Origin: an uncultured Pseudomonadales bacterium | GTDB taxonomy: Bacteria > Patescibacteriota > Microgenomatia > UBA1400 > PJMF01 | DNA length: 64,000 nucleotides | Assembly: GCA_964533345.1 (NCBI GenBank) | Contig: CAZHLX010000001.1 | Span: 1,292-65,291 of the forward strand | Direction: 5' to 3' | In this document: piece after piece, positions 22,122 through 39,714 of the stretch | Numbering within the stretch: the first letter of the stretch is position 1 | Layout of the letters: each line of letters opens with the position of its first letter | The notes under the pieces: generated by a model | Databases searched by the model: none | Told to the model about the DNA's origin: nothing | The model's input: only the letters and a program-made list of their open reading frames with translations | Program-made: the position numbers and the translations under genes

Positions 22122-23613
22122 CTTGAATCATCGCCTCCAGCTTAGCGGGTAATTGATGTTGAGAGTTCCATCCTTGCAGAACCTTCTGGGATCGTTTCTC
22201 CAAATTTTGTTCATGCTTGATAACTCTATCCCACACCAGCTGTAAGAGTATGGGTAGTTTATCATGATTTTCTTTAGCTTTTTCAATAGATAGGTAAAAG
22301 GCAGCTGTGCTTTCTTCGTGAGTTCCGACGCATTCAAATGGCTTAGCCTCAGATTTTCCAAGTAATGCCATGGCCTCTTCTATCAGGTCCTCATTTTCAA
22401 AGAGATTCTGTCCAAAAATATCAAGGATCTCATCTTTGGATACAAAGGGATAAAAGCTGACAAAGGCAAATAGACACTTAGGACACTCTCCGCACCAAGA
22501 GTTAGTCTTCTGACCACGGTTACAACTTCTGAAAACAGCAGTGTATTGATCAAATTGGGGACAGTTAAGGAAAAACTGACTGATTTGAATTTCATAAAGA
22601 GGGCGAAGTAGGGAAAAATAGGCCGGTTCTGTTTGGTCAGGGACAAGAGAGTTATCCTCAAGATATTGGTTGAACTTCTGCTCAAACTCATAGGTCTTGG
22701 AGTACTGATGATTCACAGTAACTCCATGATAGACGGCATTGCCTTCATTTGAGCTGCGTTCATTAGAGATAACTACACTGCGGTGGCCAAAGATGAGCCC
22801 AGCAAAACGACTCAAAAATCCTAGATAAGCTGAAAATGGTGTGTGGCCATTCAAATAGCCTTTTTTATTGAGTTCTAAGAGAGTAGGGTCAATAACTCTT
22901 CTGGATACGATGACGCGTTTGGGGTGAGCTATTTTAGAAATCTGATCCATAGCTGGGGTGGGGTTGAGCATGAAAGCATCATGCTTGGTATGTTTCTGAT
23001 CAAAGAAACATAGGGTTAGGCTTGAATCTTTACCTCCACCGATGGGGACCAGATAATCGGACTCTATCTTTGGATAGGAGATATCCTCTGGGAGCCTCTT
23101 TTCTGGGACTTCAACTTTCCAGCTAACAAAATTTTGTTGAGTAAAGTCGATCTTATTAACATAGAAATACTCGCCCATACCATTGATGAGTAAGTCATTC
23201 CACCAGGCTATTTGTTCTGAATTTAAGTATCCAGCCTGAATAATAATCTCTGGAGAAGCAGTAGCTTTCCAGTAGCTAGGTATTTCTGCCAATCCTAGAT
23301 GAAATACCCAGGTATCCCTTAAGACTGGGTTAATAGCTTCCCACTGTTTAGCAGAGACGCTTTCTAGGGTTACTGTAGGGTGAAACTCAATTCCGGGTTC
23401 TACTTTAAAATTGAAAGTTAGTTTTAACCCAGCTTCAGTAATTTCTGCACGATAAGAATCATAGATAAACCGTGGATGTTGGTCTCTTAGTTCTGTCAAA
23501 GTCATACGTTGGCTATTATACGCAAAAGCTGGAGAAATGTGGGTGGTAGATTGCAATGGGATGGCTTTGTTCTTTAAAGATGATTTTTTGATTAAAAACA
23601 CATGTTTTATCAA
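22090..23613 (-). CDS. PP-loop ATP-pyrophosphatase-like protein, candidate MurL-type UDP-MurNAc-L-Ala-L-Glu epimerase. The start is 23613 or ATG 23505.
   Basis: PP-loop-like PIGGGKDSSLTL (SGGxDS variant). Cys cluster CNRGQKTNSWCGECPKC. The 3' end overlaps the murD start by 32 nt. The functional call is an inference from motif plus context. Confidence 0.45.
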   Translation of the reverse strand: MIKHVFLIKKSSLKNKAIPLQSTTHISPAFAYNSQRMTLTELRDQHPRFIYDSYRAEITEAGLKLTFNFKVEPGIEFHPTVTLESVSAKQWEAINPVLRDTWVFHLGLAEIPSYWKATASPEIIIQAGYLNSEQIAWWNDLLINGMGEYFYVNKIDFTQQNFVSWKVEVPEKRLPEDISYPKIESDYLVPIGGGKDSSLTLCFFDQKHTKHDAFMLNPTPAMDQISKIAHPKRVIVSRRVIDPTLLELNKKGYLNGHTPFSAYLGFLSRFAGLIFGHRSVVISNERSSNEGNAVYHGVTVNHQYSKTYEFEQKFNQYLEDNSLVPDQTEPAYFSLLRPLYEIQISQFFLNCPQFDQYTAVFRSCNRGQKTNSWCGECPKCLFAFVSFYPFVSKDEILDIFGQNLFENEDLIEEAMALLGKSEAKPFECVGTHEESTAAFYLSIEKAKENHDKLPILLQLVWDRVIKHEQNLEKRSQKVLQGWNSQHQLPAKLEAMIQDAIKSFKTTR

Positions 23614-23842: not shown

Positions 23843-24634
23843 ATGAAGGCATTTTATGGGGAGCAACTAATGAAAAATACCGATAACACAAGCCTTCTTT
23901 TTGATTTAAGCATTTTTAGCAGTGAAAAGACTGCTTTGCTAAGTGAGTTGGAGAAGTGGCTTCAGCAGGCTGCTGGTTTGAAAGTTATTTATACTCCCAA
24001 TCCCGAACAAATAGTCCAAACTCGAGGTAACAGCTCTTTTCAAGCGGCTTTGAAAAAGGCTGATTTGTTACTGCCCGACGGTGTGGGATTAGTGATGGCA
24101 GCTAAGTTTTTAAGTCTTTTTGGTAAAGCAAAACCATTGTCTGAGCGTATTGCGGGAGTAGAAGTAGTGGCAGATTTATTAGAAATTGCTCTTAGGCAGC
24201 AGTTAGAAGTACTGGTGATTGGAGGAAGAGGCTATAGCCCTAGGGACTATTTTGCTTATAAAGGAGCAAAGATAAACTGGCTCCCAGGTTTTGAAGATAT
24301 TCAGCATCCTACTAGAGGAGAGAAGAGCAAGCTTAATAAGAAGATTGCCAAGCTCAAACCAGATCTGGTGTTCGTTGCCTTAGGTGCTCCTGATCAAGAG
24401 TTGTGGATTGAGGAGAATAGAGATCTCTTGAGTAAGAATAAAGTAAGACTAGCGATGGCTGTAGGAGGAAGCTTTGATTATTTACTGGGGAAAGTTCCCA
24501 GAGCTCCTTACTGGTTTAGAAAACTCGGCCTCGAGTGGCTTTTCCGTCTAATAATGGAACCATGGAGATTCAAAAGACAACTCCGGTTAGTCACATTTAT
24601 GAATCTGACTATTCGCAAGGCTTTTAAAAATTGA
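23843..24634 (+). CDS. WecB/TagA/CpsF family (GT26) glycosyltransferase
   Basis: IYTPNPEQIV, LLLPDGVGLV, VALGAPDQELW, VGGSFDYL and LGLEWLFRL are the conserved TagA-family blocks. Confidence 0.8.
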   Translation: MKAFYGEQLMKNTDNTSLLFDLSIFSSEKTALLSELEKWLQQAAGLKVIYTPNPEQIVQTRGNSSFQAALKKADLLLPDGVGLVMAAKFLSLFGKAKPLSERIAGVEVVADLLEIALRQQLEVLVIGGRGYSPRDYFAYKGAKINWLPGFEDIQHPTRGEKSKLNKKIAKLKPDLVFVALGAPDQELWIEENRDLLSKNKVRLAMAVGGSFDYLLGKVPRAPYWFRKLGLEWLFRLIMEPWRFKRQLRLVTFMNLTIRKAFKN

Positions 24635-24894
24635 TCTATTACCTTGTGTTTTGATACCTTACTTATCTTTTTGACCTAAATAATCTAGATAAAATAATGG
24701 GTAATTTTTGTACTCTTTTTACTATATCAATCTAATTCATTTTTTTAATCTGGTTAAGCCTGGAGGTTGAAAATGAAGCTGCTTAGCCTGGGGCACTCGA
24801 TTTGACCCTTGAGTGACCTTTAAAATTTTGACAACATATTATTGTACTCAACAAAGCAGAGAAGCCTGTTTTGTTTTGTTGTTGTTTAAATAAA

Positions 24895-27800
24895 ATGGAT
24901 AAAAACCTGCCGCCATCACTAGAGTCCAAGCCAAGCAAAAAAAGTTCTTTTTTGATAGCGCTTTTTGTGGTCTGCTTTTTTGTTTTTCCCTCAAGTATTT
25001 CTGCTGAGAGTAGTACATTTACCACTAGATCTGATTGGGATGGAGGGGAGAAGACAAGTCTAGAAACAGAGTCTAAGGAGGGTGACCTCAGGCTGAAATC
25101 AGATGGTTCTTGGGGTGCTAGAAATTGGAAAACTCCTGATCTAACTGTGAGTGTAGGGAGTGCTTTTGCTTCAGATGGGACTGATATCTACTTCTCTAGA
25201 GGTTATGGTGACAATTACTTTGCCAAGTATTCTCCTGCAACTGATCGTTGGACAGAGTTAACCTCGATGCCATATGGCACTTACTATGGTGCTGACATGG
25301 AGGTCTTAGGTGATTACGTCTACATGATCTTTGGTGGTTATCAAACTGCCTTTGCTCGGTACTCAATTACTAATGATTCCTGGGAAGATCTAACTGACAT
25401 GCCAGACCTTGTTTATGAGGGAGGAAGCTTAGTCACAGATGGAACTGACATTTTTGCTTTGCGTGGTCACTATAGTCAGGATTTTTATAAATATGATGTT
25501 AGTGAAGGAACTTGGAGTCCGATGGCTGGCATTACTCGCACTACCAGGCGTGGAGCTGATCTAGTCCACATAAATGGCTATATTTACAGTCCTCGTGGCT
25601 ACAACACCAGCTATTTTTATCGTTATGACATTAGTGCCAACACTTGGTCGCAGATGGCTAACACCCCAGCGAGTATGTATGACGATGTTAACTACACCAC
25701 TGATGGGACAGACATCTATGCTACTCGTGGTAATAACACTACTTCTTTTTACAAATACACAGTTTCTACCAATACTTGGTCTACTTTAGCAACAACTCCA
25801 GCCACAATTCGCTACTCAGGGGCAGTTTATCACTCTGGAGATGGATATATCTATGTTTTCAGAGGTAATGGGCAGTATGAGATGTGGAAGTATGACATTG
25901 CTAATAATGAATTTGTAGGTACGGTTAATACTCCAGCAGGATTATCGACTGGATCTGACATGGTTTATTACAATGGTTATCTTTATACCCCTAGAGGTAC
26001 AAATCAAACCACTTTCTATCGGTACAACATTTCTAATAACTCTTGGGAAACAATGGCAGCAGCCCCAGATAGGTTTAATGATGATACTAAGGGCGTAGTT
26101 GCTGGTTCTTATATTTATTTTTATAGAGGAAGTAATACAACTAGTTTTTGGCGTTATGATCCGGGAGGTAATTCTTGGTCAACAATGGCTGTTCCACCTA
26201 GCGGAGTTCGCTATGGAGGGACGTTAACCTATCCTGGCAGTGGGGATTATATCTATGGAACTAGGGGGTCTATGACTAGAACCTTTTGGCGTTATAGTAT
26301 CTCTGGGGATAGCTGGGATGATGGTGTTGTGGCAGATCTACCCACTGATGCAGAAGCTGGGTATGGAGCTCGTTTGGTTTCTGATGGCACAGATGTTTAC
26401 TATACTGCGGGGCATGGGATTAGTCGGTTATATAAATATGATATTTCTGAAGATACCTGGACAGAATTAGCCAACCCACCATTTTCTCCTTACTTAGGAA
26501 CAGATATTAGTCTTAGAGGTGGTAAGATCTATGCCTTAGCAGGTTGGTACGAGACTGATTTTTATGAATATACAATTGCAACTGATTCTTGGAGAAAATT
26601 AGAATCACTAGCTGGATACTATGCCACTGATATGGGTCCATATGCTGGGGCTTCGATTGAGTATGACCAAAGTTCTTCCTTTTATATTTCTCGAGGTAAT
26701 GGTCGGTTAGATGTTTTAAATTACACTCCAGGCAGTAATGATTATGTGGCCAATGGGACTTGGATATCTCCAGCTCAAGATCTTAGCTATGTTAGCAGTT
26801 GGACTAGTTTGACTAGCTCTTCTACTACTCCAGATGACTCATCAATATCTTTTCAAACCAGAAGCAGTAGTGACAATGTCAGTTGGACTGATTGGCAGGA
26901 TGTCAGTGGAACCACCATTGCTTCTTCGGCTCAGCGATATATTCAAGTCAAGGCAACTTTGACTGCCTCGACGGATCGTGGTGATACGCCTACTTTAGAA
27001 GCTGTTTCTATTAATTATGTTGGAGATGAAACTGATCCAGTAAACCCAGACACCTTTACTGGCTCATCTCAGGAGATAGGTGGAGAGGACTTAACCAGCG
27101 GTGCTTTCTATCGTCATACCCGACCATACTTTACTTGGACTGGTGATAGTGATGGTCAGACAAGTGTGGCTGGATACTATGTTTACTTTGGGACCAATGA
27201 GAGTGCTGATCCTGAGACAGATGGTATCTACCAGACGGATGATGATTATGAACCAAATATCAGTGCTACCGGGACTTATTATCTGATTGTGAAGACTAAG
27301 GATATTGCTGGAAATATTAGTGACTCGGTGACAGGTTTTACTTATAAGTACAATGGTATCTCTCCGGCCCAGTCTTTAACTGTCGATGAAACTAGTGAGT
27401 TTTTAGGAACAACTAGTGACACTAGCGTTAGTGGAGATCAAATTAAGCTAGAGAGTAAAGCTGGTTTTTGGTTACAAGACAGACTGAGCTTAACCCCAGG
27501 CTCAATGCAGTATGGAGCAAAGAATGTGGCTTATGTGGAATCAAGTAATAAGCTCTATGTGTTCAGGGGCAATAACTCCACTACTTTTTATGAATATGAT
27601 ATTACTACTGATACTTGGAGTACTAAGGCTGCCGCTCCAGAGACAGTACGTATGGGTGGAGGAGTGATCGAGGGTCCAGAAGGATATCTCTATGGCATGA
27701 GAGGAAACAATGACACTAGTTTCTGGCGTTATGACATTGAAGATGATGAGTGGAGTGATGAGGATGCAACTGATGCACCATTAACTATTTATTATGGAGG

Positions 27801-30800
27801 TTCATTAGTTTATGACGGCTCACAGTATATCTATGTGATGCGAGGTAATAATGATGATGCTTTTTGGAGATATGATACTCAAAGTGATGAGTGGGAGTCT
27901 TTATCTACAGTAGACTTTGGAGCTACTAATGATGCGGTTAATAACAATGCCTATATCTCTGCAGACTTAGCTATTGATCAAGAGAATCAACTTGTTTATG
28001 CAACTCAGGGCAACTATAGAGATGGATTTTCTGTCTATGATATTAATACAAATGAATGGACTGTCTTAACAGATTTGCCGGCTCTTCCTTACTTGGGTTC
28101 ATCAATTGAGTTTGATGATGTGAGTAACTCGATCTATTTCATGCCTGGTTATTACAAAGATCTTCTCTTTAAGTATGATGTCAGTGGCCAGACTTGGACT
28201 CAAGTTTCATCAGCTCCAGCCACTTTCTATTATGGAGGAAATATTCGTAAAGCAGGAGACAATTTCTATGCTCTCAGAGGTGCAAACTCAACTAGTTTTT
28301 ATAAATATGACATCGCTAAAGATAGTTGGCTTTCACCTACCAGGGGTTTGTTTGGCAATGAGTTTCGTAGTAGCAGTTTGCTAAATGTTTATTATGGAGC
28401 AGATATTGTCAAAGGTGATAGTAATAACTTCTATTTAACTAGAGGTTACTATGCCAACAACTTCGTGAGATGGAACTCCCAAACAGGAGAGTTGACCGAG
28501 TTAAGTAATACACCAGTTGGTGTTTATAACGGCTCCTCTATGGTTTATGACAGTACAAATAACAAGATCTACCTCACGGGAGGAGCCTATGTACAAAAGT
28601 TCTATGTTTATGACATCACGACTGATGTTTGGAGTGAAGAGGTAGATGATCCAATGCCGGCTAATGTAAACTATGGTGCCTCAATGGTCTATGACGGTAG
28701 TCGTTATATTTATATGAATAGAGGAGGTAACGGAAGTAACCTTTATCGCTTTGACACCCAAGGCTCAAGTGGTTCTAAGTGGGATACGATGGCTAACGCC
28801 CCGGCTGGGCTAGGGTATGGGGCAGAGCTAGCCCTCTACAATGGTTACATCTATACCATGAGAGGGCAAAATGTAGCTAATAATCCTTTGTATCGTTATG
28901 ATATCTCTCAAGACAGCTGGGTCAGTAGTTTGTCTCCTTTAAGTATCGATATCTACAATGATGGCTTCATGGCTAATGGAGGAGATGGTTACTTATATGT
29001 TGCTCGAGGTGAAAATGATACTGAGTTTTATCGTTACTCAGTTAGTGGAGACGAGTGGAGCACTTTAGATGAAGTTCCAGCTAGTGTTAATGAGGGAGGA
29101 TCTGGAGAAAGTGATGGGGATAGCAAGGTTTTTGTGATGCCTGGTTCTGGATCGAACACACATGCTGATGGATTGTACACATATGTTGCTCAAACTAATA
29201 ACTCCTCATTTGAAGAGTCTGGAAGTTATGAAACTCAATCTCATGATCTGGTAAGTGTCTATAAGTGGGTGAGTTTGGCAATCGATTATAGCTTGGATAG
29301 CAATGCATCTTTATCAATTCAAACTAGAAGTAGTAGTGACAACTCTGACTGGTCTTCTTGGACAGCAGTTTCAAATGAGAAACTGGATGGCTCAACATAT
29401 TACTATCAAATTAATTCTCCAGAAGCCAGATACTTACAAGTAAAATTAAATTTTGCTTCTGCAGATGGAGTTCGTTCAGCAGCAATGAATTCTTATACGA
29501 TTAATTACTTCCAAGATACTTCAGTTCCAACAAACCCAAGCAACGATGGTTTGTCAGCTTATAGCGATGATGGTCAGAGTGATGCGATTGTTTCTAACAC
29601 CTGGTACGCTCACTCAGCTCCATACTTTGACTGGCCAGATGCTGAGGAAACCAATGGTGCTTCTGATGGGACAAGTCAATCTGGTGTAGCAGGGTACTAT
29701 GTTTACTTTGGCACAGATGAAGAAGTTGATCCTGAGCTGGGCGGAGCTTATCAACTTACTAGTGACTACACAGCTAGTGGGCTGACTACCGATACTACTT
29801 ACTATTTACGTATTAAGACTCGAGATGATGCTGGCAATGTTTCTAGTGAAACCTGGTCACCTTTTATTTATAAGTATGATTCTCAAGGTCCCAGTAGCAT
29901 TGAGAATTTAGTCTCAGATCCAGCTGGTTATACCTCTACAAACAGTTTTGATTTCAGCTGGGATGAGGCGAGTAGTAGTGGTGCGATTGTGACAGGCTAT
30001 TGTTATAAAACTGGGGCCACAGAAGGTGACTATGCAGCTGATCAATGTATTACTGAGAACAGCATTGAAGCAGTCCCTGCCTATCAGGCTGGTGCCAATA
30101 CTTTTTATGTTCGATCAAAAGATCAAGCTAGTAACTATAGTGAATACAGTACTGTCTCTTACTTCTTTGCTGATATTGAGAATGCTCCAGCCCCACCGAT
30201 GAACTTAACAGTTACTCCAGAAGTAAGTACTGAAAACTCATTTGCTTTTGATTGGGATCCGCCAGCTGAAGGAACATTTTATGGCTCAGCTTCAAATCTC
30301 TCTTATTACTACAGCATTAATGCTTTACCTACAGAAAGTAGTACTACTACCACTAGCTTAACTGAGTTGAAAGCTGGGGCTTTTGCCACTCTACCAGGGG
30401 AAAACATGTTCTATCTCTGTACTATGGATGAAGCGGGAAATATCAATTATGGCGATTATGCTTCAGTTGCATTTACTGCCAATACCACCGCTCCAGGAAT
30501 TCCGCTTAATATTGATATTGCTGATGTGTCAGTTAAATCTACTGAGTCATGGAAATTGGCTATCTCTTGGGAAGAGCCAACTCAAGCTGGAGCAGGAGTA
30601 TCAAGTTATAAGATTTATCGATCAACTGATAATGAAAGTTTTGAATTGGCGGCGACTAGTGGAGGTATCTCTTATGTTGACGTTAATTTAGATCAAGAGA
30701 TGTACTACTACAAGGTTAAGGCTTGTGATAACACTAATAACTGTGGTGAGTTTTCTGACATAGTTAATTATCTTCCTGACGGAAAATATACTGTGGCTGC

Positions 30801-32022
30801 ACCACTTGTTTCTGAGCCAGCAGTTTCAAACATCACTACCAAGAAGGCAACTGTGATTTGGTCCACTAGTCGTACTTGTGATTCCAAACTTGCCTATGGT
30901 CCTGGCTCTGGTGATTACTTTGATGAAGAGGTATCTAACTCTGAGCATGTAACAAATCACGAGTTAACCATGTCAAATCTTTCTCCAGGTACAACTTATT
31001 ACTTTACTGCTAAGTGGACCGATGAAGATGGTAATACAGGTGAATCAGAGGAGTATTCGTTTACTACAGATCCACCTCCTTCAACAGAAGAACCAGTGGT
31101 GAAAGGAGTTGGTCTAGACTTTGCTTTCTTAGAATTTACTTCAAGAAATGCTGCTAAGGTCAGAATCTATTATGGTGAGTCATCTGCCTTTGGTGGGAGC
31201 AAAGAAATTGTTACTGGGACGGCTGAGGGCACACACACAGTTGAGATAGGTGATCTTAAAGATGGGACTAAGTACTATTACAAGATAAATACTTTTGATA
31301 TCGAAGATGAAGAGTATGAGGGTGAGATCCATTCATTTAAAACTTTGCCTAGACCAAAGATCTCTAAGATAAATGTTCAGCAAGTGAAGGGGACTGCCAA
31401 GCCAACAGTCTTTGTTTCTTGGTATTCCAATACTGAGATCTCTTCGATTGTGACTTACTATCCCACCCATGATGCTCATCGAGCTTTAGATGATGTCAAT
31501 GTAGCCCTTAAGTCTGGTCAGCATCGAGCTATTCTATCTAATTTAGAGCCAGAGACTACTTATAGCATTTTGATTAAGGGAAATGATGTGGCCGGCAATG
31601 AAGCATTGGGAGAAGTAATTCAGATTACTACTTCTGCTGATACTAGGCCGCCTCAAATTACAAATCTCAAGGTTGAAGGAGAGATAATTGGGACTGGTGA
31701 AGAAGCTACTGCTCAGTTAGTTGTCTCTTATAACACTGATGAGCTAACGACTTCTCAGATTGAGTATGGTGAAGGAAGTGGGACTACTTACTCACAAAAA
31801 ACTCAGGAAGATGGAAGCCTATCTACTCATCACTTAGTAGTTATCTCTGAGTTGACTCCTTCAAAGATCTACCACTTACGTGCTCTATCTAAAGATAGTG
31901 CTGGTAACTTAGCTCAATCTGTTGATAAAGTAGTTATAACCCCTAAAGCTACAGAGAGTGCTCTAGATTTGGTAATTACCAATATGTCTTCAGTCTTTGG
32001 TTTCTTAAGGAGAATTGAGTGA
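24895..32022 (+). CDS. Giant (2,375 aa) secreted/surface protein: two arrays of ~12 Kelch-like blades, two beta-sandwich plus FN3-like modules, and ~7 C-terminal FN3-like modules
   Basis: Signal-like SFLIALFVVCFFVFPSSISAES. The blade motif Y..RG....F(Y/W)(R/K)Y(D/S)xxxxxW recurs. FN3-type segments include YKIYRSTDNESF..YYYKVKA and TYYFTAKWTDEDGN. ATG 24895 is preferred over the TTG at 24871 used by the ORF track. Confidence 0.8.
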   Translation: MDKNLPPSLESKPSKKSSFLIALFVVCFFVFPSSISAESSTFTTRSDWDGGEKTSLETESKEGDLRLKSDGSWGARNWKTPDLTVSVGSAFASDGTDIYFSRGYGDNYFAKYSPATDRWTELTSMPYGTYYGADMEVLGDYVYMIFGGYQTAFARYSITNDSWEDLTDMPDLVYEGGSLVTDGTDIFALRGHYSQDFYKYDVSEGTWSPMAGITRTTRRGADLVHINGYIYSPRGYNTSYFYRYDISANTWSQMANTPASMYDDVNYTTDGTDIYATRGNNTTSFYKYTVSTNTWSTLATTPATIRYSGAVYHSGDGYIYVFRGNGQYEMWKYDIANNEFVGTVNTPAGLSTGSDMVYYNGYLYTPRGTNQTTFYRYNISNNSWETMAAAPDRFNDDTKGVVAGSYIYFYRGSNTTSFWRYDPGGNSWSTMAVPPSGVRYGGTLTYPGSGDYIYGTRGSMTRTFWRYSISGDSWDDGVVADLPTDAEAGYGARLVSDGTDVYYTAGHGISRLYKYDISEDTWTELANPPFSPYLGTDISLRGGKIYALAGWYETDFYEYTIATDSWRKLESLAGYYATDMGPYAGASIEYDQSSSFYISRGNGRLDVLNYTPGSNDYVANGTWISPAQDLSYVSSWTSLTSSSTTPDDSSISFQTRSSSDNVSWTDWQDVSGTTIASSAQRYIQVKATLTASTDRGDTPTLEAVSINYVGDETDPVNPDTFTGSSQEIGGEDLTSGAFYRHTRPYFTWTGDSDGQTSVAGYYVYFGTNESADPETDGIYQTDDDYEPNISATGTYYLIVKTKDIAGNISDSVTGFTYKYNGISPAQSLTVDETSEFLGTTSDTSVSGDQIKLESKAGFWLQDRLSLTPGSMQYGAKNVAYVESSNKLYVFRGNNSTTFYEYDITTDTWSTKAAAPETVRMGGGVIEGPEGYLYGMRGNNDTSFWRYDIEDDEWSDEDATDAPLTIYYGGSLVYDGSQYIYVMRGNNDDAFWRYDTQSDEWESLSTVDFGATNDAVNNNAYISADLAIDQENQLVYATQGNYRDGFSVYDINTNEWTVLTDLPALPYLGSSIEFDDVSNSIYFMPGYYKDLLFKYDVSGQTWTQVSSAPATFYYGGNIRKAGDNFYALRGANSTSFYKYDIAKDSWLSPTRGLFGNEFRSSSLLNVYYGADIVKGDSNNFYLTRGYYANNFVRWNSQTGELTELSNTPVGVYNGSSMVYDSTNNKIYLTGGAYVQKFYVYDITTDVWSEEVDDPMPANVNYGASMVYDGSRYIYMNRGGNGSNLYRFDTQGSSGSKWDTMANAPAGLGYGAELALYNGYIYTMRGQNVANNPLYRYDISQDSWVSSLSPLSIDIYNDGFMANGGDGYLYVARGENDTEFYRYSVSGDEWSTLDEVPASVNEGGSGESDGDSKVFVMPGSGSNTHADGLYTYVAQTNNSSFEESGSYETQSHDLVSVYKWVSLAIDYSLDSNASLSIQTRSSSDNSDWSSWTAVSNEKLDGSTYYYQINSPEARYLQVKLNFASADGVRSAAMNSYTINYFQDTSVPTNPSNDGLSAYSDDGQSDAIVSNTWYAHSAPYFDWPDAEETNGASDGTSQSGVAGYYVYFGTDEEVDPELGGAYQLTSDYTASGLTTDTTYYLRIKTRDDAGNVSSETWSPFIYKYDSQGPSSIENLVSDPAGYTSTNSFDFSWDEASSSGAIVTGYCYKTGATEGDYAADQCITENSIEAVPAYQAGANTFYVRSKDQASNYSEYSTVSYFFADIENAPAPPMNLTVTPEVSTENSFAFDWDPPAEGTFYGSASNLSYYYSINALPTESSTTTTSLTELKAGAFATLPGENMFYLCTMDEAGNINYGDYASVAFTANTTAPGIPLNIDIADVSVKSTESWKLAISWEEPTQAGAGVSSYKIYRSTDNESFELAATSGGISYVDVNLDQEMYYYKVKACDNTNNCGEFSDIVNYLPDGKYTVAAPLVSEPAVSNITTKKATVIWSTSRTCDSKLAYGPGSGDYFDEEVSNSEHVTNHELTMSNLSPGTTYYFTAKWTDEDGNTGESEEYSFTTDPPPSTEEPVVKGVGLDFAFLEFTSRNAAKVRIYYGESSAFGGSKEIVTGTAEGTHTVEIGDLKDGTKYYYKINTFDIEDEEYEGEIHSFKTLPRPKISKINVQQVKGTAKPTVFVSWYSNTEISSIVTYYPTHDAHRALDDVNVALKSGQHRAILSNLEPETTYSILIKGNDVAGNEALGEVIQITTSADTRPPQITNLKVEGEIIGTGEEATAQLVVSYNTDELTTSQIEYGEGSGTTYSQKTQEDGSLSTHHLVVISELTPSKIYHLRALSKDSAGNLAQSVDKVVITPKATESALDLVITNMSSVFGFLRRIE

Positions 32023-32420
32023 TGATTAAGTTAAAGTTAAAACTAACCAAGAGACAAGTCATAGTTCAAAGCATTGCCTTAGTGATTGGTCTGATCTGTT
32101 CATTAGTGATCTTTAATTATCAGCAGAATCAGGCTTTAAAGTTTGATGTGACTTGGAACAGTCCTCAGGAGGCAATGATATTTTGGAAGACACCAACTCC
32201 AACCATAGGGTATGTTAAGTATGGGCAGAAGAAATTGTTTTTGGACCAAACTCAAGATCAATTAAGTGGAGAACCAGGTGATATCCACCTAGTCATTCTA
32301 AGTGGTCTTCCGGTTGGGGAAGAAACCTTTATCTCGATCAGAAACAAAGAAGATAGTTTTCTTCGATGGCCAGCAAAAATGAGTATTAATTATGAACAGG
32401 AAGTAGATGAGCAAATCTAA
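32022..32420 (+). CDS. Small single-TM protein with one FN3-like module
   Basis: Its ATG overlaps the giant ORF stop (TGATG, 32020-32024). TM is VIVQSIALVIGLICSLVIF. VTWNSPQEAMIFWKTPTPTIGYVKYG...GDIHLVILSGLPVGEETFISI resembles the C-terminal modules of the giant ORF. Confidence 0.6.
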   Translation: MIKLKLKLTKRQVIVQSIALVIGLICSLVIFNYQQNQALKFDVTWNSPQEAMIFWKTPTPTIGYVKYGQKKLFLDQTQDQLSGEPGDIHLVILSGLPVGEETFISIRNKEDSFLRWPAKMSINYEQEVDEQI

Positions 32421-35400
32421 TAAAAGTACTTCTAGCGTTGTGACTGATATCAAGGATGTACATAAAACATTCTTAGTTGGTGAGCAAGAGATTGAAATTC
32501 TTAAAGGAATAAACTTCCAGGTCTATAAGGGAGACTTTTTAGTTCTATTTGGTCCATCAGGATGTGGGAAAAGCACAGTTCTAAATACCATCTTAGGTCT
32601 TGAACCACCCACAAAAGGAAATGTGAGTTTCCTTGGTAAAGACTTATACAAATATAATGAAGATGAGCGGGCTGTGATCAGAAAAAAAGAGATCGGTATG
32701 GTTTATCAGCAATCAAACTGGATAAAGGCTTTGAATGTGATTGAGAATATTTGTTTTCCTTTGACTCTATCTGGAGTTTCTACTACAGAAGCAGAGAAAA
32801 GAGCCATGGAATTATTAAAAATGGTTGATATGGAACATGCTGCTCTCCAAATTCCAACAGAGTTGTCTTCAGGGCAGCAACAGCGCATTTCACTAACTCG
32901 GGCTCTAATTACAGATCCGGCAGTGATTATTGCTGATGAGCCGACTGGAAACTTAGACTCAAAAGCTGGCACTGAGATTATGAATCTCTTTAAAGAGTTT
33001 AATGATAAGAGTACAACCGTTATCATGGTTACTCATGACTTAGAGTACTTGAGTTATGCTACCCGTTCAGTCTCTATGTTGGATGGTCAGGTGACAGATG
33101 TTTACAAGGCTGGTGACAAAGCATTGAAAAACTTAAGTGTCTCAAAAAAAGTTCATAATGAAATTAAACCTTCAGATAAAAAAGACAAGAAAGAAGAGCC
33201 ATCTAAGGAGTTAGATTCTCAAGAGGGAGGGATAAAGCTCAAGAGAATCAAGAAGACTAAAAAGAAAAAAATGAAAAATAAACTAAATAACCTCTGGCAG
33301 ATAATTAAGGGCTATAAGTTTTCTATTAATGACTTAAAAAAACTTAAAGACAACACCTTGTTCTTCAGTACTTTCTTATTCTTATTGCTAATTACCTTGA
33401 GTATAGAGATTCTTTCCCCTTTGGGAAGGATTAAGTTTATTCAAGAAAAGTTCAAGTCACCTCTTAAAAAATTAGAATCATTTTATGAGAAAGCTGTGGG
33501 GTTCTTTGATACGGCTGAACCAGATACCATTAGCTCGTCAGCTTTGATTACTTTGGCTTTACGTCATTTAAAGGCTAAAAGAACTCGTACCATAATTACG
33601 ATTGGTGGAATGGCCATCGGAATCGGCGCGATTGTGCTACTTCTTTCTTTGGGATATGGATTTCAACGATTAGTTGTTTCAAGGGTAGCTCGTCTTGATG
33701 AGATGAAACAAGCTGATGTGGCTATTGGCCAAGCCTCTTCATTGTCTTTAAATGAATCTGCTTTGAACAGCTTCAAAGAGATTGAGTATGTAGAGCATGT
33801 CTTGCCTTTGGTATCTTTGGTTTCTAAAGTTAGCTTTAACAACTCTGTTTCTGATGTGGTGGCCTATGGGGTGACAAGTGAGTTTTTGAATCAATCAGCG
33901 ATAAATACAATTCACGGAAAGATGTTTGAGAGTAGTGATGACTTAAGTTTGGTAGATCATGATCAACAAGGGATGGTAGCAGGCTACTCTATTGAAGTGA
34001 GAACTGATGCTAAGTTGAAAAAAGAAGTTTATGAAATAAATTACTCTCTAGAACCACTTGTATGGAAGCCAGTCTATCAAGAGCCAAGCCAAGATTCAGA
34101 TATCATTGGCTACACCAAACGTACTGTGGGCGACCAGGAAGCAGTTGAGGTTTGGGGTGATTCTTATCCAGAGGCAGATCCGTCTTTGGCTGGGATTGAT
34201 GCCTATGGAAATCAATATGACCGTTGGGTCAAAAACTCATTCCCAATCTGGGAAAAAGAAAGCTGTGTTGAAGAAGATCCTGATTGTTTTGGAAATGAGT
34301 ATCTTTTATCAAAAGTAGGGACGAACCAACTAGTTACTGATGGATACTTGACTGAAGACAGATTAATTATTGAGAGATTCAGTATTCTTGATAATGGATT
34401 GTCAGAGCCAAGTGAAGGGGCTTTTATTGAGCAAGTTCAGTTTCACTTAGGAGAGAAGTGGGTGCAGACCTATCTTCATCCTAAAAACAGTGAGGTCTTG
34501 TTGGGGCTATTTACCCAATCTGAGAATGGGGGCGATTTAGTTGAGGGTGATTTAGTCTGGGGAGAATCCTATGCAGATGATGAAGGCAGAGGCAACATGG
34601 GACAGAATGAAAATAACCAGTGGTTAGGTTACTGGATTAGGGCGGAGTTGCCACTATGGCGTAAGGTTGACTGCCAAGATTGTGATAACTACTATTTGGT
34701 AGAGAGAGACGAGGCAGAAGAGCAGATTACACGTAGTGTTTATTTCCCAGCTAATTTAGTTGAAGTAGAGAATTTACCAGAATTTAATCAAGGTCAAGTT
34801 CTAGGAGAGGCAACCGGCAGTGCTGAGGTTAATCTAGATGAAATCTTAAAGATGATTGATTCTGAATCAAGTGGATCAGCAGAAGCGAGTGCAACTTCTG
34901 AGCTATTTGCTGAGCTAGGTTGGGTGGAGATTGCCTCTGCGGCTGGGGTAGTTGAGAAAGATCCCACTTCTATTGATCAAGTCCCTTTGACTGATGATGC
35001 CCAGAAGTTAGCGGTAGTTAATCAAGCCATGTTGAGATTGCTGGGGATTGAAGAAGGAAAAGCTGTTGGTGAATCTATTCTTGCTACTTTAGTTTTTGAC
35101 AACTCACTTTTTAGTCAGGAAGAGTATCAGGCAGAGTCAGTAGAAGAAGAGTTTAAGATTATTGGGGTAGTTCCAGGGAATGATACACCCGCTTTTTACT
35201 TCCCCTTTAGTGATCTCAAGGGGACTGGGATTGAGAACTTCACTCAGATGAAAGTAGTTGCTGTAGATAAGGATGATCTTAAAGAAGTTAGGGTTGCTAT
35301 CGAGTCTATGGGGTTCAAGACCTCATCCGTTGTGGATACTGTGGGTAAGATTAATGGATTATTTAACAATATCCGGTTAGTTCTTTTCTTCTTAGGTCTG

Positions 35401-35787
35401 ATCGCGTTAGGGGTAGCAGCTTTGGGAATGTTTAATACTCTGACAGTTTCACTATTGGAAAAAACTAGAGAGGTGGGGTTAATGAAGGCGATGGGAATGA
35501 AATCTGATGAGGTCAAGCGCTTATTCTTAGCAGAGTCTATTGTGATTGGTCTCTCAGGTGGCCTGGCTGGCCTGGCACTGGGTTTTGTTTTAGGAAAACT
35601 AATTAGTGCCAGTCTGTCTACGGTAGCTGTTGCCAAGGGAGTGGGAGTTATTGATGTTGTCTTTATTCCTCCTCACTTAGCAATCTCGATCATAGTTTTG
35701 TCACTAGTAGTGGGGGTATTCACTGGTATCTTCCCGGCAAGGAGAACTACCAAGATTTCAGCATTAAATGCACTTCGTTATGAGTAA
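32407..35787 (+). CDS. Fused ABC ATPase plus MacB/FtsX-type permease (type VII ABC) with a ~560-aa extracytoplasmic domain
   Basis: Walker A GPSGCGKST, Q-loop, signature LSSGQQQRISLTRAL, Walker B IIADEPTGNLD, H-loop VTHD. A Lys-rich linker follows. The MacB-type TM1 context is ALRHLKAKRTRTIITIGGMAIGIGAIV. The C-terminal FtsX three-TM bundle ends ...ALNALRYE. Its start overlaps the preceding ORF by 14 nt. Confidence 0.85.
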   Translation: MSKSNKSTSSVVTDIKDVHKTFLVGEQEIEILKGINFQVYKGDFLVLFGPSGCGKSTVLNTILGLEPPTKGNVSFLGKDLYKYNEDERAVIRKKEIGMVYQQSNWIKALNVIENICFPLTLSGVSTTEAEKRAMELLKMVDMEHAALQIPTELSSGQQQRISLTRALITDPAVIIADEPTGNLDSKAGTEIMNLFKEFNDKSTTVIMVTHDLEYLSYATRSVSMLDGQVTDVYKAGDKALKNLSVSKKVHNEIKPSDKKDKKEEPSKELDSQEGGIKLKRIKKTKKKKMKNKLNNLWQIIKGYKFSINDLKKLKDNTLFFSTFLFLLLITLSIEILSPLGRIKFIQEKFKSPLKKLESFYEKAVGFFDTAEPDTISSSALITLALRHLKAKRTRTIITIGGMAIGIGAIVLLLSLGYGFQRLVVSRVARLDEMKQADVAIGQASSLSLNESALNSFKEIEYVEHVLPLVSLVSKVSFNNSVSDVVAYGVTSEFLNQSAINTIHGKMFESSDDLSLVDHDQQGMVAGYSIEVRTDAKLKKEVYEINYSLEPLVWKPVYQEPSQDSDIIGYTKRTVGDQEAVEVWGDSYPEADPSLAGIDAYGNQYDRWVKNSFPIWEKESCVEEDPDCFGNEYLLSKVGTNQLVTDGYLTEDRLIIERFSILDNGLSEPSEGAFIEQVQFHLGEKWVQTYLHPKNSEVLLGLFTQSENGGDLVEGDLVWGESYADDEGRGNMGQNENNQWLGYWIRAELPLWRKVDCQDCDNYYLVERDEAEEQITRSVYFPANLVEVENLPEFNQGQVLGEATGSAEVNLDEILKMIDSESSGSAEASATSELFAELGWVEIASAAGVVEKDPTSIDQVPLTDDAQKLAVVNQAMLRLLGIEEGKAVGESILATLVFDNSLFSQEEYQAESVEEEFKIIGVVPGNDTPAFYFPFSDLKGTGIENFTQMKVVAVDKDDLKEVRVAIESMGFKTSSVVDTVGKINGLFNNIRLVLFFLGLIALGVAALGMFNTLTVSLLEKTREVGLMKAMGMKSDEVKRLFLAESIVIGLSGGLAGLALGFVLGKLISASLSTVAVAKGVGVIDVVFIPPHLAISIIVLSLVVGVFTGIFPARRTTKISALNALRYE

Positions 35788-35805
35788 AAGTCAGAGATAG
35801 CTAGG

Positions 35806-36114
35806 CTACTCTGTAGGTTGATCATCAGGACTCATGCCTAATAACCACATCACAGCTTCTTTTTTATAGCGACGATCGCCACGAGAGTTGATGCGAATAG
35901 CAGGAAGTTTACCACGCTTGCCCCAGCGTTTAATAGTCAGTGGTGAGACTCTGAGTAGATCTGCTACCTCGCGGACTGTTAGGAGGTCAGGGAGGTTGTT
36001 GATATCTAAATCAGCTGCATCAGTAGCACGACCAGTTTTCTTTTGATCACTTTTGGACATGGCTTCATCTAAGTTGTCGTTGTTGACTGTTTGGTCAGTC
36101 ATATTTTCCTCCAT
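35806..36114 (-). CDS. Excisionase/MerR-type helix-turn-helix DNA-binding protein
   Basis: LLTVREVADLLRVSPLTIKRWGKRGKLPAIRINSRGDRRYKKEAV is the HTH_17/excisionase-family signature. The N-terminal half is acidic and low-complexity. Confidence 0.7.
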   Translation of the reverse strand: MEENMTDQTVNNDNLDEAMSKSDQKKTGRATDAADLDINNLPDLLTVREVADLLRVSPLTIKRWGKRGKLPAIRINSRGDRRYKKEAVMWLLGMSPDDQPTE

Positions 36115-36387
36115 ATAAATAGAACTTAATACTGACCTGGTGAGAGAAGAAGAGGTTTTGAGAGGTTTGGAAGCCTTACCTCAGGGCAGGTTCACAATAC
36201 ATCAAAATCGCACTTACTTACTATCAAAAGTAGCAGACAAAGACAAACTGGGTCAAGGAGTAATTTCACCTGGTAAAAAACCCAAAGCTCAATCGCTTTG
36301 TTTTTCACTACATAAGACCTATATTATGAAAACAAAGATCCTGTAATGTTTTTAATGTGGAAAAAGTTGGCAAAATAGCCTGGTACT

Positions 36388-36416
36388 AAAAACCCCGCTT
36401 AGTTGCGGGGTTTTTT
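36388..36416 (-). terminator. Rho-independent terminator after rplL (symmetric, usable in both directions)
   Basis: aaaaCCCCGCttagttGCGGGGtttttt: a 6-bp GC stem (36393-36398 / 36405-36410) flanked by A and T runs. Confidence 0.7.
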
Positions 36417-36444
36417 CGTTACCTAATTAAAGGTGAGTGTAGTT

Positions 36445-36825
36445 TTATTTAAGTTCAACTACACAGCCAGCCTCTTCTAAAGCCTTTTTGGCTTCAGCAG
36501 CGGCATCTTTACCAGCGCTCTCGAGCACGGTTTGAGGAGTGGACTCCACAAATTTCTTGGCGTCACTAAGACCCAAGTCAGGCTTGAGGGCACGGACGGC
36601 TTTAATAGCGCCGATCTTGTTTGAACCTGCATCCTTGAGGATGACGTCAAACTCAGATTGCTCTTCAGCTGGAGCAGCAGCATCACCACCAGCGGCGGGA
36701 GCGGCGGCCATAACTGGAGCAGCAGCGCTGACACCGAATTCATCTTCCAAAGCTTTAACTAGCTCTGAAACTTCTGTTAATGAAAGTTTTTTAACTTCAT
36801 CAACGATTTTTTGGACATCTGCCAT
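36445..36825 (-). CDS. rplL: Ribosomal protein L7/L12
   Basis: [32 protein letters not shown], an Ala/Pro hinge, and the C-terminal [21 protein letters not shown]. The start is taken at the MADVQ Met rather than the upstream Met of the ORF track. Confidence 0.9.
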
Positions 36826-36850
36826 ATGTACCTCCTTGTTACTTACTAAT

Positions 36851-37360
36851 TTAGTTGGCTTCTTTTTCACTAATAGCTTTTAAGACGTAAACCAAGTTCT
36901 TTTGTGAGGCGCTAAGGACATTAACTAGGCCATAAGCGGGTCCTTGGATACGTGAGATTAAAGTAGCAATCAACTCATCCTTAGATGGTAATTTGCTTAG
37001 TTCTAGGATCTCCTCAGTGCTGAGCACTTTATCGTCCATTCCACCTTGTCTAATCTCTAATTTATTTTCTTCTTCATGGAAATTAACCACTTGTTTAAAT
37101 CCTGCAATCTCATCCTCGTATGAAAAAATAATAGCGTTCATCCCATTGAGGGAATCAGCAAACTCTTGGTTGTCTAAAGCTAGACTTACTAGAGTATTTT
37201 TGGCGACGATAAATTCAGCACCAGCTTTTTTGAGCTCACCACGAAGTTTAACTTGGTCAGAGACTGAAGTTCCCTCGTAATTAACGATCGCAAAAGCTTT
37301 AGCCTTGCTTAATTTATCCTTAAGCATGGTTAGCTGATCTTGATTGTGTTGATTTGGCAT
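36851..37360 (-). CDS. rplJ: Ribosomal protein L10
   Basis: Typical L10 N-terminus (...[37 protein letters not shown]) and a position directly upstream of rplL. Confidence 0.9.
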
Positions 37361-37476
37361 AAGAATTCCTTTTATTAATCCTTGGCCAAAGAGAGTGTGA
37401 GAAAAAACACAGACGAAGTTATCTGATCTCCTCGGTGTGTCTTATTGGTTTGCACACTGTCTTTGGAATAGATCGG
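37361..37476 (-). promoter_or_regulatory. Candidate L10-leader-type structured 5' UTR of rplJ-rplL
   Basis: A 14-nt long-range inverted repeat (13/14 complementary), ccaaagagagtgtg (37386-37399) and cacactgtctttgg (37453-37466), encloses ~53 nt. An extended -10-like TGcTATACT is on the minus strand at ~37478-37486. Confidence 0.35.
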
Positions 37477-37490
37477 TAGTATAGCATATA

Positions 37491-38366
37491 ATGCCGTTTA
37501 TGTCTTATGTGGTCATTGCCTTATTATCTCTAGTAGCTTTTTCTATTTACAATGTTTTGCAGAAAGTGGCAATCAAGTACTTAGTTAGCGATAATTTCAT
37601 ATTTAGTTTTTATTACTATCTATTTGTAATTCTATTACTAGTCCCGATGATCTTCTTGGGGAAGATAGTTTGGCCGACTCCTGCTCAGATACCAATGATT
37701 GCGGCTGCTGGTTTGATCAGAACAGTCATGTTTGTGACCTATCTTTGGACTCTAAAGAAGCTTGACGTGACTGTGATTACTTCGATGTTTAACTTGAGAG
37801 TCATCTTAGTGGGTTTAGCTGAGATGTTGGTGTTAGGAACAGTTTTTTCTTGGGGGAAATATGCTTGGATGTTGGTGCTATTTGTGGGAGGAATCTTTTT
37901 GAGTATGGATGAGAAATTCAACTGGCGCTCGTTTTTTAGTCCGGTGATGGCAGTCTTTGGTTTAGTTTTAGTCATGTCTACTTCTCAATACATGGCGATT
38001 AGCAAAGGATTAGCAATTACTGATCTGTGGACTTTTACTTTCTGGAACTTTGTCTTTTCTCTAGTTGGCTTGATCCCAATCTTGATTTATCAACGAAAAA
38101 ACATCAAATTACCTCTGAAAACGACTGGGATTTTGGCGGTGATCACCACCACTTTTTTGACAGGAGTTATTTTAGAAAGTCAGGCAGTTTCAATGAATCC
38201 TACTGGAACGACTGCTGTACTGTCTCTACCAGGATCAATGCTATTGGCAATGGTGGTAGCTAAGATTAAGCCAGATTTGATTGAGAATCATACCTGGAAA
38301 GTCTATGCAGTTCGTCTTGCTAGTGTGGCGGTGATGACTCTGGCTGTGTGGCAGATAGTACGCTAA
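37491..38366 (+). CDS. DMT-superfamily (EamA-like) transporter
   Basis: 291 aa, ~10 TM helices, duplicated five-TM layout. Confidence 0.6.
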
Positions 38367-38376
38367 GATTAAGAAG

Positions 38377-38922
38377 ATGAGTAATGATATTCATTCTATA
38401 GAAATTGCTGGTGTTAAGCGAGATTTACCTCTTTTTGCTGTCAATGAAAATTTGAAAATTGCCCTATTCAACATTCTAGGGGATACTGAGGTAGTAGTTG
38501 CAGCTGCCAAGGCTTTGGTTGAGAAACTTCCAAAAGAGATTGAGGTATTAGTTACTCCTGAAGTGAAGAGTGTGCCACTGGCATTTGAGATGTCGCGGAT
38601 CAGTGGTTTGCCCTATGTGGTGACTAGAAAAATCAGGAAGCCTTACATGGAGGATGCTCTAGGAGCAGAGGTGGTCACTATTACTACTGGTAAGCCTCAG
38701 ACTCTGTGGCTAGATGGGAAAGATAAGGAGCTAATTAAGAATGCAAAGGTGGCTCTAGTTGATGATGTAGCCAGCACCGGAAGTACCTTCCAGGGTTTGC
38801 GTAAGTTGATGAAGAAAGCTAGAGCAGAAGTTGCTGCTGAAGTAGTGGTTTTTACTGAAGGTGATGAGGATCAATGGCAAGGGGTGATTTCTCTTGGTCA
38901 TTTGCCTCTTTTTAAGGATTAA
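38377..38922 (+). CDS. Type I phosphoribosyltransferase (adenine/purine PRT-like)
   Basis: PRPP-binding motif [15 protein letters not shown]. Size (181 aa) and position next to mtnN fit purine/adenine salvage. Confidence 0.7.
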
Positions 38923-38923
38923 T

Positions 38924-39619: not shown

Positions 39620-39714
39620 TATACTTCTTTTCTCAGAATGAAAAAATATTTTATTTGCACTACTACCACTACAAGCCCCTAAGGGTGAGGTGGTCGTGGT
39701 CAAAAAGGCTATAA

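Follow-up and report, generated by a model that had tools for sequence, protein, structure and literature searches.

Type VII ATP-binding cassette (ABC) systems convey ATP-driven movement to the outside, where they activate enzymes, extract lipoproteins or expel substrates, and in FtsEX, one of their members, cytoplasmic ATP hydrolysis serves a dedicated extracytoplasmic protein partner such as EnvC, PcsB, CwlO or RipC instead of transport (PMC11466899). A Gram-positive member, YtrEF, has been linked to cell-wall homeostasis and is suggested to act by protein-protein contact (PMC8060467). Here, we describe a gene cassette encoding a giant Kelch-headed surface protein, a mini-protein and an ABC ATPase and permease related to these systems, found in a 64,000-nucleotide (nt) stretch of the contig CAZHLX010000001.1 (hereafter the window, meaning the whole of this stretch, to which coordinates refer), which comes from a patescibacterial lineage described as monoderm (PMC11809585). 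The pairing of surface protein and transporter recurs in about 70 other Patescibacteria species and therefore looks like an undescribed envelope machine; sequence comparison indicates a type VII ABC in which both the ectodomain and the class of partner are new, and which is conserved across much of the Patescibacteria. The original prediction for this DNA had noted no known description of a system with such a composition, and no description of a stalk protein paired with a type VII ABC was found in the searchable literature, which covers few subscription journals. Nor is the pairing described in the preprint on the Pam pilus of the Candidate Phyla Radiation (CPR), in the P. danicum giant-protein paper or in the survey of diversity-generating retroelements (DGRs).

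Organization of the cassette

The following open reading frames (ORFs) make up the cassette, with lengths in amino acids (aa):

24895-32022, + strand: giant gene, ORF from ATG 24895, 2,375 aa; its longest start is TTG 24871
32022-32420, + strand: mini-protein gene, ORF from ATG 32022 (alternative GTG 32019), 132 aa, with an N-terminal transmembrane (TM) helix at aa 11-35 and one FN3-like module (hydropathy, Pfam, own FN3 profile)
32407-35787, + strand: ABC ORF as read in the window, 1,126 aa, ATPase and permease in one frame
32407-33270, + strand: ABC ATPase (nucleotide-binding domain, NBD) of the LolD/FtsE/MacB kind (Pfam, NCBIfam, motifs)
33271-35787, + strand: MacB/FtsX-type permease, 838 aa (Pfam MacB_PCD and FtsX, AlphaFold2 model, Foldseek)

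The giant and mini genes meet in a TGATG, where the A of the giant's TGA (32020-32022) doubles as the start of the mini ATG, a 1-nt overlap found in the relative L002 too, and an AAGGAG resembling a Shine-Dalgarno sequence lies 8 nt upstream of this ATG. The mini gene overlaps the ABC ORF by 14 nt, with a Shine-Dalgarno-like AGGAAG upstream of ATG 32407, and the use of this ATG as the ATPase start is supported by the N-terminus MSK(S/T)SNK, common to the relative L004. The 2,375-aa giant with its stop, the two possible mini starts, the TGATG and the 14-nt overlap with ATG 32407 had all been claimed in the original prediction and were reproduced from the sequence. Searched with hidden Markov models (HMMs) of the family, the window matches the stalk (E=0), mini (2e-60), NBD (4e-148) and permease (E=0) profiles, and it carries the marks of the cassette, namely a stalk/tail protein encoded directly 5' of the ATPase and a permease with the family-specific ectodomain.

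Conservation across Patescibacteria

A scan of GTDB with the permease alignment, at one genome per species, gave 571 confirmed permease relatives, and all ORFs of the best 80 loci were searched with HMMs for the stalk, mini, ATPase and permease. Counts of the stalk gene refer to the 74 of these 80 loci that are informative, those with at least ~1.3 kb of upstream DNA. A stalk protein is encoded in 73 of the 74, on the same strand in 72 and within -50 to +76 nt of the next cassette gene in 67, so that the genes do co-occur in related genomes, as the original prediction expected, including genomes in which the flanking DNA is unrelated. The closest permease relatives (46-63% identical) share the same cassette of a giant of ~2,370 aa, a mini-protein of ~130 aa, an ATPase and a permease, and the four-gene order and overlaps are kept both where the flanks are unrelated (L004, L006) and where they are similar (L002, L005). 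L002, L004-L006 and L010-L032 have a full-length orthologue of the giant (2,357-2,408 aa, 61-76% identical) in the corresponding place.

More distant transporters (35-44% identical) have no mini gene. The gene directly 5' of them, which often overlaps by an ATGA, encodes a protein of 1,100-1,530 aa that is ~40% identical to the giant over the latter's last ~800-1,000 residues, up to the C-terminus, and has an unrelated head. A stalk homology search returned heads with Kelch, LamG, Laminin_G, DUF2341, Big_13 and other modules, and C-type-lectin-like heads occur in the loci too. The part conserved with the transporter is the ~800-aa C-terminal FN3 stalk and a 24-aa tail, not the Kelch head. The source names of the stalk homologues are all Patescibacteria lineages, and the named records of the permease scan include Woesebacteria, Pacebacteria, Dojkabacteria/WS6, Shapirobacteria, Collierbacteria, Roizmanbacteria, Beckwithbacteria, Daviesbacteria, WWE3, Moranbacteria, Nomurabacteria and Saccharibacteria.

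Two subtypes can be distinguished. Type A, represented by the window and L010-L033, has a Kelch-headed giant of 2,357-2,408 aa and a permease of 802-872 aa, and a mini gene is present in 23 of its 24 loci. In type B, the partner measures 930-2,100 aa and its heads vary, a mini gene is absent from every locus, and the permease, of ~650-720 aa, lacks the equivalent of aa ~345-475 of the window's permease, the second module of the ectodomain insert described below. The mini gene and this module 2 appear together, and only with the Kelch giant of ~2,370 aa. The mini-protein thus belongs to the Kelch-headed subtype only, of which it would be an accessory subunit, and is not a partner in the family as a whole. 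Its match to Pfam Pur_ac_phosph_N is weak (E=0.006, below the curated cut-off), and the FN3 profile derived from the giant recognizes it at E=6e-5, in line with the earlier description of a single TM helix and one FN3 module of the giant's flavour.

Several loci depart from the simple order. An unassigned 696-aa ORF overlaps the permease end at 12549-14639 of L005, two to three tandem stalk genes lie ahead of one transporter at 818-9024 of L052, and two divergent stalk genes are present at 648-9099 of L074. On the Shapirobacteria contig JBAYIT010000002.1 (L038 and L066), two complete cassettes lie ~20 kb apart.

Head, stalk and tail of the giant surface protein

The giant consists of a signal peptide, two successive sets that each comprise 12 Kelch blades, an unmatched beta module and an FN3 module, seven further FN3-like modules and the 24-aa tail:

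24895-25002, + strand: Sec-type signal peptide, aa 1-36, with a cleavage site inferred from sequence after ...FPSSISA and before ESS
25096-26706, + strand: Kelch block 1, 12 blades, aa 68-604 (Pfam Kelch models and self-derived blade HMM)
27073-27348, + strand: FN3-like module between the Kelch blocks, aa 727-818 (own FN3 profile)
27442-29154, + strand: Kelch block 2, 12 blades, aa 850-1420 (self-derived blade HMM)
29572-31947, + strand: C-terminal stalk of eight FN3-like/Pur_ac_phosph_N-like modules, aa 1560-2351 (Pfam and own FN3 profile)
31948-32019, + strand: C-terminal tail, aa 2352-2375, ATESALDLVITNMSSVFGFLRRIE, near-invariant in stalk proteins, with a proposed docking or recognition role

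The original reading of a signal peptide, ~24 Kelch-like blades and ~9 FN3 modules agrees with Pfam, which recognizes Kelch_1/Kelch_6 and related models, fn3 and Pur_ac_phosph_N, and with HMMs built from the giant itself, which find exactly 24 blades (12 + 12) and nine FN3-like modules (seven strong and two weak). The module between the Kelch blocks also gives a sub-threshold Pfam Big_13 match over aa 741-814 (24.8 bits against a cut-off of 27), and the beta module ahead of it (aa ~610-725) is without a Pfam match. The sole hydrophobic segment of the protein is N-terminal, at aa 13-39. The giant has no anchoring domain by Pfam and no second hydrophobic segment, and no lipobox was seen in its signal peptide, read by eye without a dedicated predictor. 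Kelch and FN3 modules are all that Pfam finds in it, with no coiled-coil, LytM, CHAP or NlpC domain and no hydrolase domain.

The most conserved piece of the protein is its extreme C-terminus. In 74 non-redundant stalk proteins, the last 35-40 residues, comprising the tail and the residues before it, read ...SKVYHLRAxSKDxAGNxGxSxDxVxITPKATxNALxLVxxNLxxxFGFLGG, with the near-invariant core ITPKATxNALxLVxxNLxxxFGFL. The basic end of the giant, RRIE, is not conserved, and most relatives finish in GG and a few residues. Two conventional roles of such a tail were considered and rejected: no segment of it reaches the hydrophobicity of a TM anchor, and although the ITPKAT motif is conserved, the tail has neither an LPXTG nor a TM helix, as a sortase or exosortase-type signal would.

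The signal peptides of type-B stalk proteins (for example L009 5407-5560, L038, L042, L043, L053 and L070) carry an n-region motif, (F)EPRFHFSRFQFNL or K(W/R)QFN, before the hydrophobic core and a conserved cleavage-like site after ...IFA. They recall specialized classes such as YSIRK, and the n-region motif is absent from the window's giant.

The permease and its ectodomain

The 838-aa permease was modelled with AlphaFold2 (AF2; predicted local distance difference test, pLDDT, 76.9). The model comprises extra N-terminal helices, an elbow helix and TM1 (aa 89-139, TM1 proper at aa 104-139), a 546-aa ectodomain and TM2-4 (aa 687-837), with the alpha/beta elements of a Porter/MacB_PCD core at aa 147-208 and 569-685. 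Foldseek relates it to MacB, LolCDE, YtrEF and Spr0694-0695 at E values of 1e-13 to 1e-11, with a probability of 1.00 to MacB, LolC/E, YtrF, FtsX, HrtB and BceB, and isolated periplasmic domains of MacB and LolE match the ectodomain (5udf, 3ftj and 5lj8). A profile search of PDB has its best match in YtrF (E=3.1e-36), over profile positions 654-846 only, which correspond to TM2-4. The FtsX-type four-helix TM bundle, the large ectodomain between TM1 and TM2 and the cognate ATPase are those of a type VII ABC. Searches with the Kelch, fn3, Pur_ac_phosph_N, ABC_tran, MacB_PCD and FtsX models, which the original prediction had proposed, all found matches, that of the mini-protein lying below threshold.

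The core of the ectodomain is interrupted by a large insertion:

33991-34770, + strand: ectodomain insert, permease aa 241-500, two all-beta modules of ~125 aa each (AF2, pLDDT 91.6)

This insert has invariant Trp, Gly and Asp residues and two Cys pairs, and stands in the place of the Sabre subdomain of MacB. It matches nothing in Pfam at E<=1 and nothing in PDB or BFVD below E=0.17 by Foldseek. The ectodomain family is small: a search of 1.84 billion cluster representatives yields 338 at E<=1e-3, of which 96 reach E<=1e-30. Recurring fold matches of low probability point to SH3b/endolysin wall-binding domains, and SH3b-type wall binding by the insert may be taken as a lead.

Relationship with described systems

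The cassette appears to belong to the type VII ABC superfamily and to be none of its named members, as judged from profile and structural matches. Neither the ectodomain nor the mini-protein matches a characterized exporter family; NCBIfam scores lie far below the cut-offs for FtsEX, LolCDE and MacB. In logic, the system is most like FtsEX with EnvC or PcsB, or else LolCDE, by analogy, and it fails membership of both and of MacAB-TolC.

With FtsEX, it shares the type VII ABC, the FtsX-fold permease and the dedicated extracytoplasmic partner; FtsEX chains are among the structural matches of the permease, and FtsE is the best NCBIfam match of the ATPase. However, this match scores 204.8 against a cut-off of 264.85, and FtsX scores 27-29 against 225-255. 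The ectodomain here is of 546 aa with a novel twin beta insert, compared with ~100-150 aa in FtsX, and the partner is an FN3-stalk protein of 1,000-2,400 aa with a short tail rather than a coiled-coil hydrolase activator. LolCDE is likewise a type VII ABC, one that handles a Sec-exported protein via a short terminal membrane-associated element; LolC and LolE are among the top structural and profile matches, and LolD is the second-best ATPase family. The scores again fall short (lolCE 69 against 362, LolD 204.3 against 307.75), and the client differs, having no lipobox seen and a conserved element that is C-terminal and proteinaceous. Moreover, there is no LolA-like gene in the cassette and no LolB, and a single permease gene, implying a homodimer, replaces the LolC/LolE pair.

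MacB and the Gram-positive Spr0693-0695 resemble the permease in the MacB_PCD and FtsX domains, the long TM1/TM2 stalk and the Porter-like subdomain, and MacB provides the best Foldseek match (5gko, E=1.4e-13; 5xu1 too) as well as a precedent for the N-terminal ATPase fusion seen in this assembly and in some distant relatives. Unlike in MacAB-TolC, no MacA/HlyD-type adaptor or TolC is encoded near the window cassette or related cassettes; the score with NCBIfam PRK10535 is 65 bits (cut-off 966), Sabre is replaced by the unmatched insert and the fusion is not ancestral here. YtrF of Bacillus subtilis, the closest solved sequence relative of the permease over TM2-4, is a protein of 436 aa with a small ectodomain, and the ytr operon is not known to include a gene for a giant partner. 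A large repetitive surface protein encoded beside a specific ABC that recognizes its C-terminus is also known from the giant adhesins of type I secretion systems (T1SS), such as LapA with LapBCE, which are alike in concept. T1SS of the RTX/LapA kind nevertheless have another ABC fold, a membrane fusion protein (MFP) and an outer-membrane channel, and are Sec-independent, whereas the giant has a Sec signal, the permease has the FtsX fold and neither an MFP nor an outer-membrane factor is encoded nearby.

A one-base fusion of ATPase and permease

The original prediction described the transporter as an ATPase fused to a MacB/FtsX-type permease. Its parts stand: the ATPase keeps every motif intact (Walker A at aa 49-56, Q-loop at 99-102, signature at 153-157, Walker B with its Glu at 173-179 and H-loop at 208-211), Pfam places ABC_tran at aa 32-180 (E=3.2e-33), MacB_PCD at aa 395-529 (E=4.8e-16) and FtsX at aa 995-1118 (E=5.9e-17) of the 1,126-aa ORF, and after FtsE and LolD the best NCBIfam matches of the ATPase are DarD, YbbA and DevA. 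The fusion itself hinges on one A:

33265-33271, + strand: A7 homopolymer, the last A being the A of the permease ATG, which fuses the ATPase and permease frames in this assembly

The Logan contig SRR8146440_4657 (15,009 bp) is identical to 24818-39827 of the window but for one base, the sole difference in 15 kb being that this independent assembly has A6 (L001 8448-8453) where the window has A7. With A6, the ATPase TGA overlaps the permease ATG (ATGA), which gives an ATPase of 277-288 aa and a permease of 838 aa. In the public gene index, the entries are a 277-aa ATPase and an 838-aa permease, with no fused 1,126-aa product, and a look-up of the giant and the fused product there for further assemblies returned only this Logan contig. 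A stop codon closes the ATPase in 19 of 19 type-A relatives inspected, so that the ancestral and typical cassette consists of four translationally coupled genes, for the giant, mini-protein, ATPase and permease, rather than a trio.

Errors in homopolymer length are a common assembly artefact, and the fused reading in the window would be either such an error or a private mutation. That it reflects a genuine, newly evolved single-polypeptide transporter, or a slippery A-run giving both split and fused forms, we regard as distinctly unlikely. The window does read through in frame, the split and fused states lie a single homopolymer A apart, and natural fusions exist in more distant relatives (L007-L009 and many database proteins of ~950 aa), so a fused protein would probably work; these points must be set against the A6 and stop of the independent assembly, the stop in every type-A relative inspected, where the A-run is not conserved, the true fusion of ATPase and permease in just 1 of the 80 GTDB loci and the absence of the fused product from the gene index. 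A conserved slippery site at the poly-A junction is rejected, since the relatives are without the A-run. The 'fused' gene model of this assembly should thus be treated with caution in annotation.

In some relatives, the giant, ATPase or permease is split into two ORFs (L025 1389-8501, L030 1537-8640, L023 8903-9789, L031 1732-4178 and L085 9935-12072). Whether frameshifts or assembly errors, these cases suggest that breaks are common in such long, repetitive or A-rich genes.

Retroelement-diversified heads in relatives

In 13 type-B loci (12 distinct), a gene for a DGR reverse transcriptase (RT), usually accompanied by bAvd, lies 1-6 kb 5' of that for the stalk protein:

L024, L035, L037, L038, L041-L043, L048, L051, L053, L061, L065, L082: RT genes near the cassette

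In L009, a template repeat of 125 nt (3263-3387) is paired with a variable repeat (6500-6624) in the head-coding part of the stalk gene, and template adenines account for 17 of the 20 mismatches; the L007 repeats lie at 2097-2185 and 6487-6575, with 4 of 4 mismatches at template adenines. The variable region of the type-B targets is C-type-lectin/FGE-sulfatase-like. Such adenine-specific diversification implies that the head is a ligand-binding surface, and the stalk, tail and transporter would then be a constant chassis on which the heads are interchangeable and, in some relatives, diversified by a retroelement. The type-B relatives hence resemble the DGR-diversified surface proteins of CPR bacteria in their bAvd and RT genes and in the adenine differences between template and variable repeats. 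The window differs: no RT homologue or template repeat is present in its 64 kb, its giant does not qualify as a DGR target and its Kelch head is strongly conserved. The survey of DGRs gives little functional information on the CPR targets and mentions no ABC partner (PMC5758913).

Neighbouring genes and candidate signals

Upstream of the cassette, the window contains the following:

20727-23613, - strand, and 23843-24634, + strand: a MurD-like ligase, a 507-aa ORF and then a WecG/TagA-family glycosyltransferase right before the cassette
24671-24698, + strand: candidate sigma-70-like promoter (TTGACC-16-AATAAT) in the 260-nt gap 5' of the giant gene, a weak candidate based on a consensus match only

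The region around the candidate promoter is not enriched in promoter-like sites. The 507-aa ORF is without a Pfam match, and the ORF in the equivalent place 5' of WecG in L002 is recorded as MurL_N/MurL_epimerase_C. These cell-wall genes (MurD, MurL-like and WecG) were considered as part of the system and rejected, as the context is kept only in the nearest relative and not in L004 or L006. On the other side, a small MerR/HTH_17 (excisionase-like) gene (35806-36114, - strand) converges on the 3' end of the permease; it is found in the same place in L001 and L002 and not in more distant relatives.

How the transporter may serve its partner

We consider it probable that the cassette is a dedicated client system, that is, a Patescibacteria-wide type VII ABC serving one large Sec-exported surface protein and not import or general efflux; the window has its Kelch-headed type A. 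The giant would be exported by Sec and its signal peptide cleaved. Neither a TM segment nor a lipobox nor a sortase signal was seen in the mature protein, and its tail and last FN3 module may therefore be the parts by which the transporter holds or handles it. Docking of the tail and stalk base would take place on the ectodomain of the permease or in the cleft formed by the two TM bundles, the site itself being a guess, and in type A the membrane-anchored mini-protein would add a further FN3 module at the stalk base. ATP binding and hydrolysis by the ATPase dimer would drive a MacB-type movement of the TM1/TM2 stalk helices and ectodomain that acts on the stalk base, while the head, here four sets equivalent to six Kelch blades each, would form the ligand-binding end, projected about 25-30 nm by the FN3 stalk. 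By analogy with FtsEX and EnvC/PcsB, the most likely outcome is a stable anchor with ATP-controlled conformation or engagement. A close second, by analogy with LolCDE, is a one-off extraction or hand-over by which the tail comes free of the membrane and the protein is threaded into the wall or placed there; within the dedicated-client reading, we rank the anchor or actuator slightly above release. Of the original proposal of a dedicated mechanotransducer or exporter, the linkage is thus upheld, by the stalk gene in all but one informative locus and by the absence of a match to any known exporter family, and the composition is revised.

A number of observations weigh against this reading. L081 has no stalk gene in its 1.3 kb of upstream DNA, gaps of 0.2-3 kb separate the genes in L054, L067, L082 and L087, and L074 has a divergent orientation. 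The tail is only moderately amphipathic (hydrophobic moment up to 0.48). An extra hydrophobic helix (33349-33432, permease aa 27-54) precedes the elbow helix and TM1 and is bordered on either side by Lys/Arg-rich stretches; as a plain TM helix it would reverse the topology known from MacB, and it may therefore lie in the plane of the membrane or be re-entrant. Finally, the type-A giant is 61-76% identical between genomes, compared with 43-57% for the threonyl-tRNA synthetase (ThrRS; 39770-41563 in the window) of the same genome pairs. Ribosomal protein L10 (36851-37360) is 50-81% identical in these pairs, about level with the giant, and the Kelch blocks alone are 54-79% identical. Conservation beyond that of ThrRS seems unusual for a host-recognition adhesin and fits a structural envelope component at least as well. 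The 'adhesin' label given to the giant in the original prediction is therefore not supported, and the type-A protein looks instead like a fixed, core envelope component with an invariant ligand.

The ABC might instead serve in secretion or release alone, handling the giant transiently, with the tail as a recognition signal; once Sec had exported the protein, the ABC would pull the tail out of the outer leaflet and let the giant go into the wall, an S-layer or the medium, as in Lol or MacB-STII. Points in favour are the conserved C-terminal tail, with a position like that of a sorting or secretion signal, the LolCDE chains close to the top of the structural matches, the existence of extractors and expellers in the type VII family (PMC11466899), and a giant with a signal peptide that looks cleavable and no anchor. 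We nonetheless find this explanation rather unlikely, because transporters and their large proteins come in 1:1 pairs, to which type A adds a membrane-anchored FN3 mini-protein, suggesting a lasting assembly; because so small a cell would lose a freed protein that has an eight-FN3 stalk and lacks a wall-binding domain; and because no acceptor (LolA or MFP) is encoded nearby. It is still more improbable, and in our view the least credible explanation, that the ABC transports or flips another substrate, such as a glycan, a lipid-linked precursor or a peptide, or provides BceAB/MacB-like resistance, and is co-transcribed with the giant gene without direct contact between the proteins. The product of such an ABC could modify, anchor or protect the surface protein; YtrF, the nearest solved relative, belongs to a cell-wall homeostasis system, the cassette follows a WecG/TagA-type glycosyltransferase and Mur genes in the window and L002, and the weak best-probability fold matches of the insert are SH3b wall-binding domains. 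Yet the cell-wall context is not shared by L004 and L006, where the stalk gene is kept, and this explanation does not account for the extreme C-terminal tail being the most conserved piece of the partner, or for the co-variation of ectodomain architecture with partner type and mini gene.

A bolder form of the dedicated-client reading, which we put forward tentatively and hold to be possible but doubtful, is an ATP-powered surface organelle, in which the MacB-fold ABC dimer would be the socket and motor for a 25-30 nm FN3 stalk with an exchangeable, sometimes DGR-hypervariable head. Driven by ATP cycles, the head would be extended, retracted, engaged or released, for instance when host cells are captured or let go, and the Kelch-headed type A, conserved like ribosomal proteins, would be the core envelope version of the same device. 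If this is true, type VII ABC mechanotransducers would gain a new functional class, and the organelle would be among the main determinants of how episymbiont and host make contact.

Implications for the biology of Patescibacteria

The Patescibacteria, or CPR, represent a large share of bacterial diversity and live mostly attached to other cells, and how their surface is built and operated is almost unknown. The cassette offers a compact module of three to four genes that can be recognized from sequence by the tail motif and the permease ectodomain, and that spans classes from Microgenomates and Dojkabacteria to WWE3 and Moranbacteria. It joins a cytoplasmic ATPase to very large surface proteins, the heads of which are hypermutated by retroelements in some lineages. 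Should the coupling prove direct, type VII ABC mechanotransducers would no longer be limited to hydrolase activation, lipoprotein extraction and efflux. The module may provide a concrete handle on host recognition and attachment in CPR bacteria, and a functional context for many of their unexplained DGR targets.

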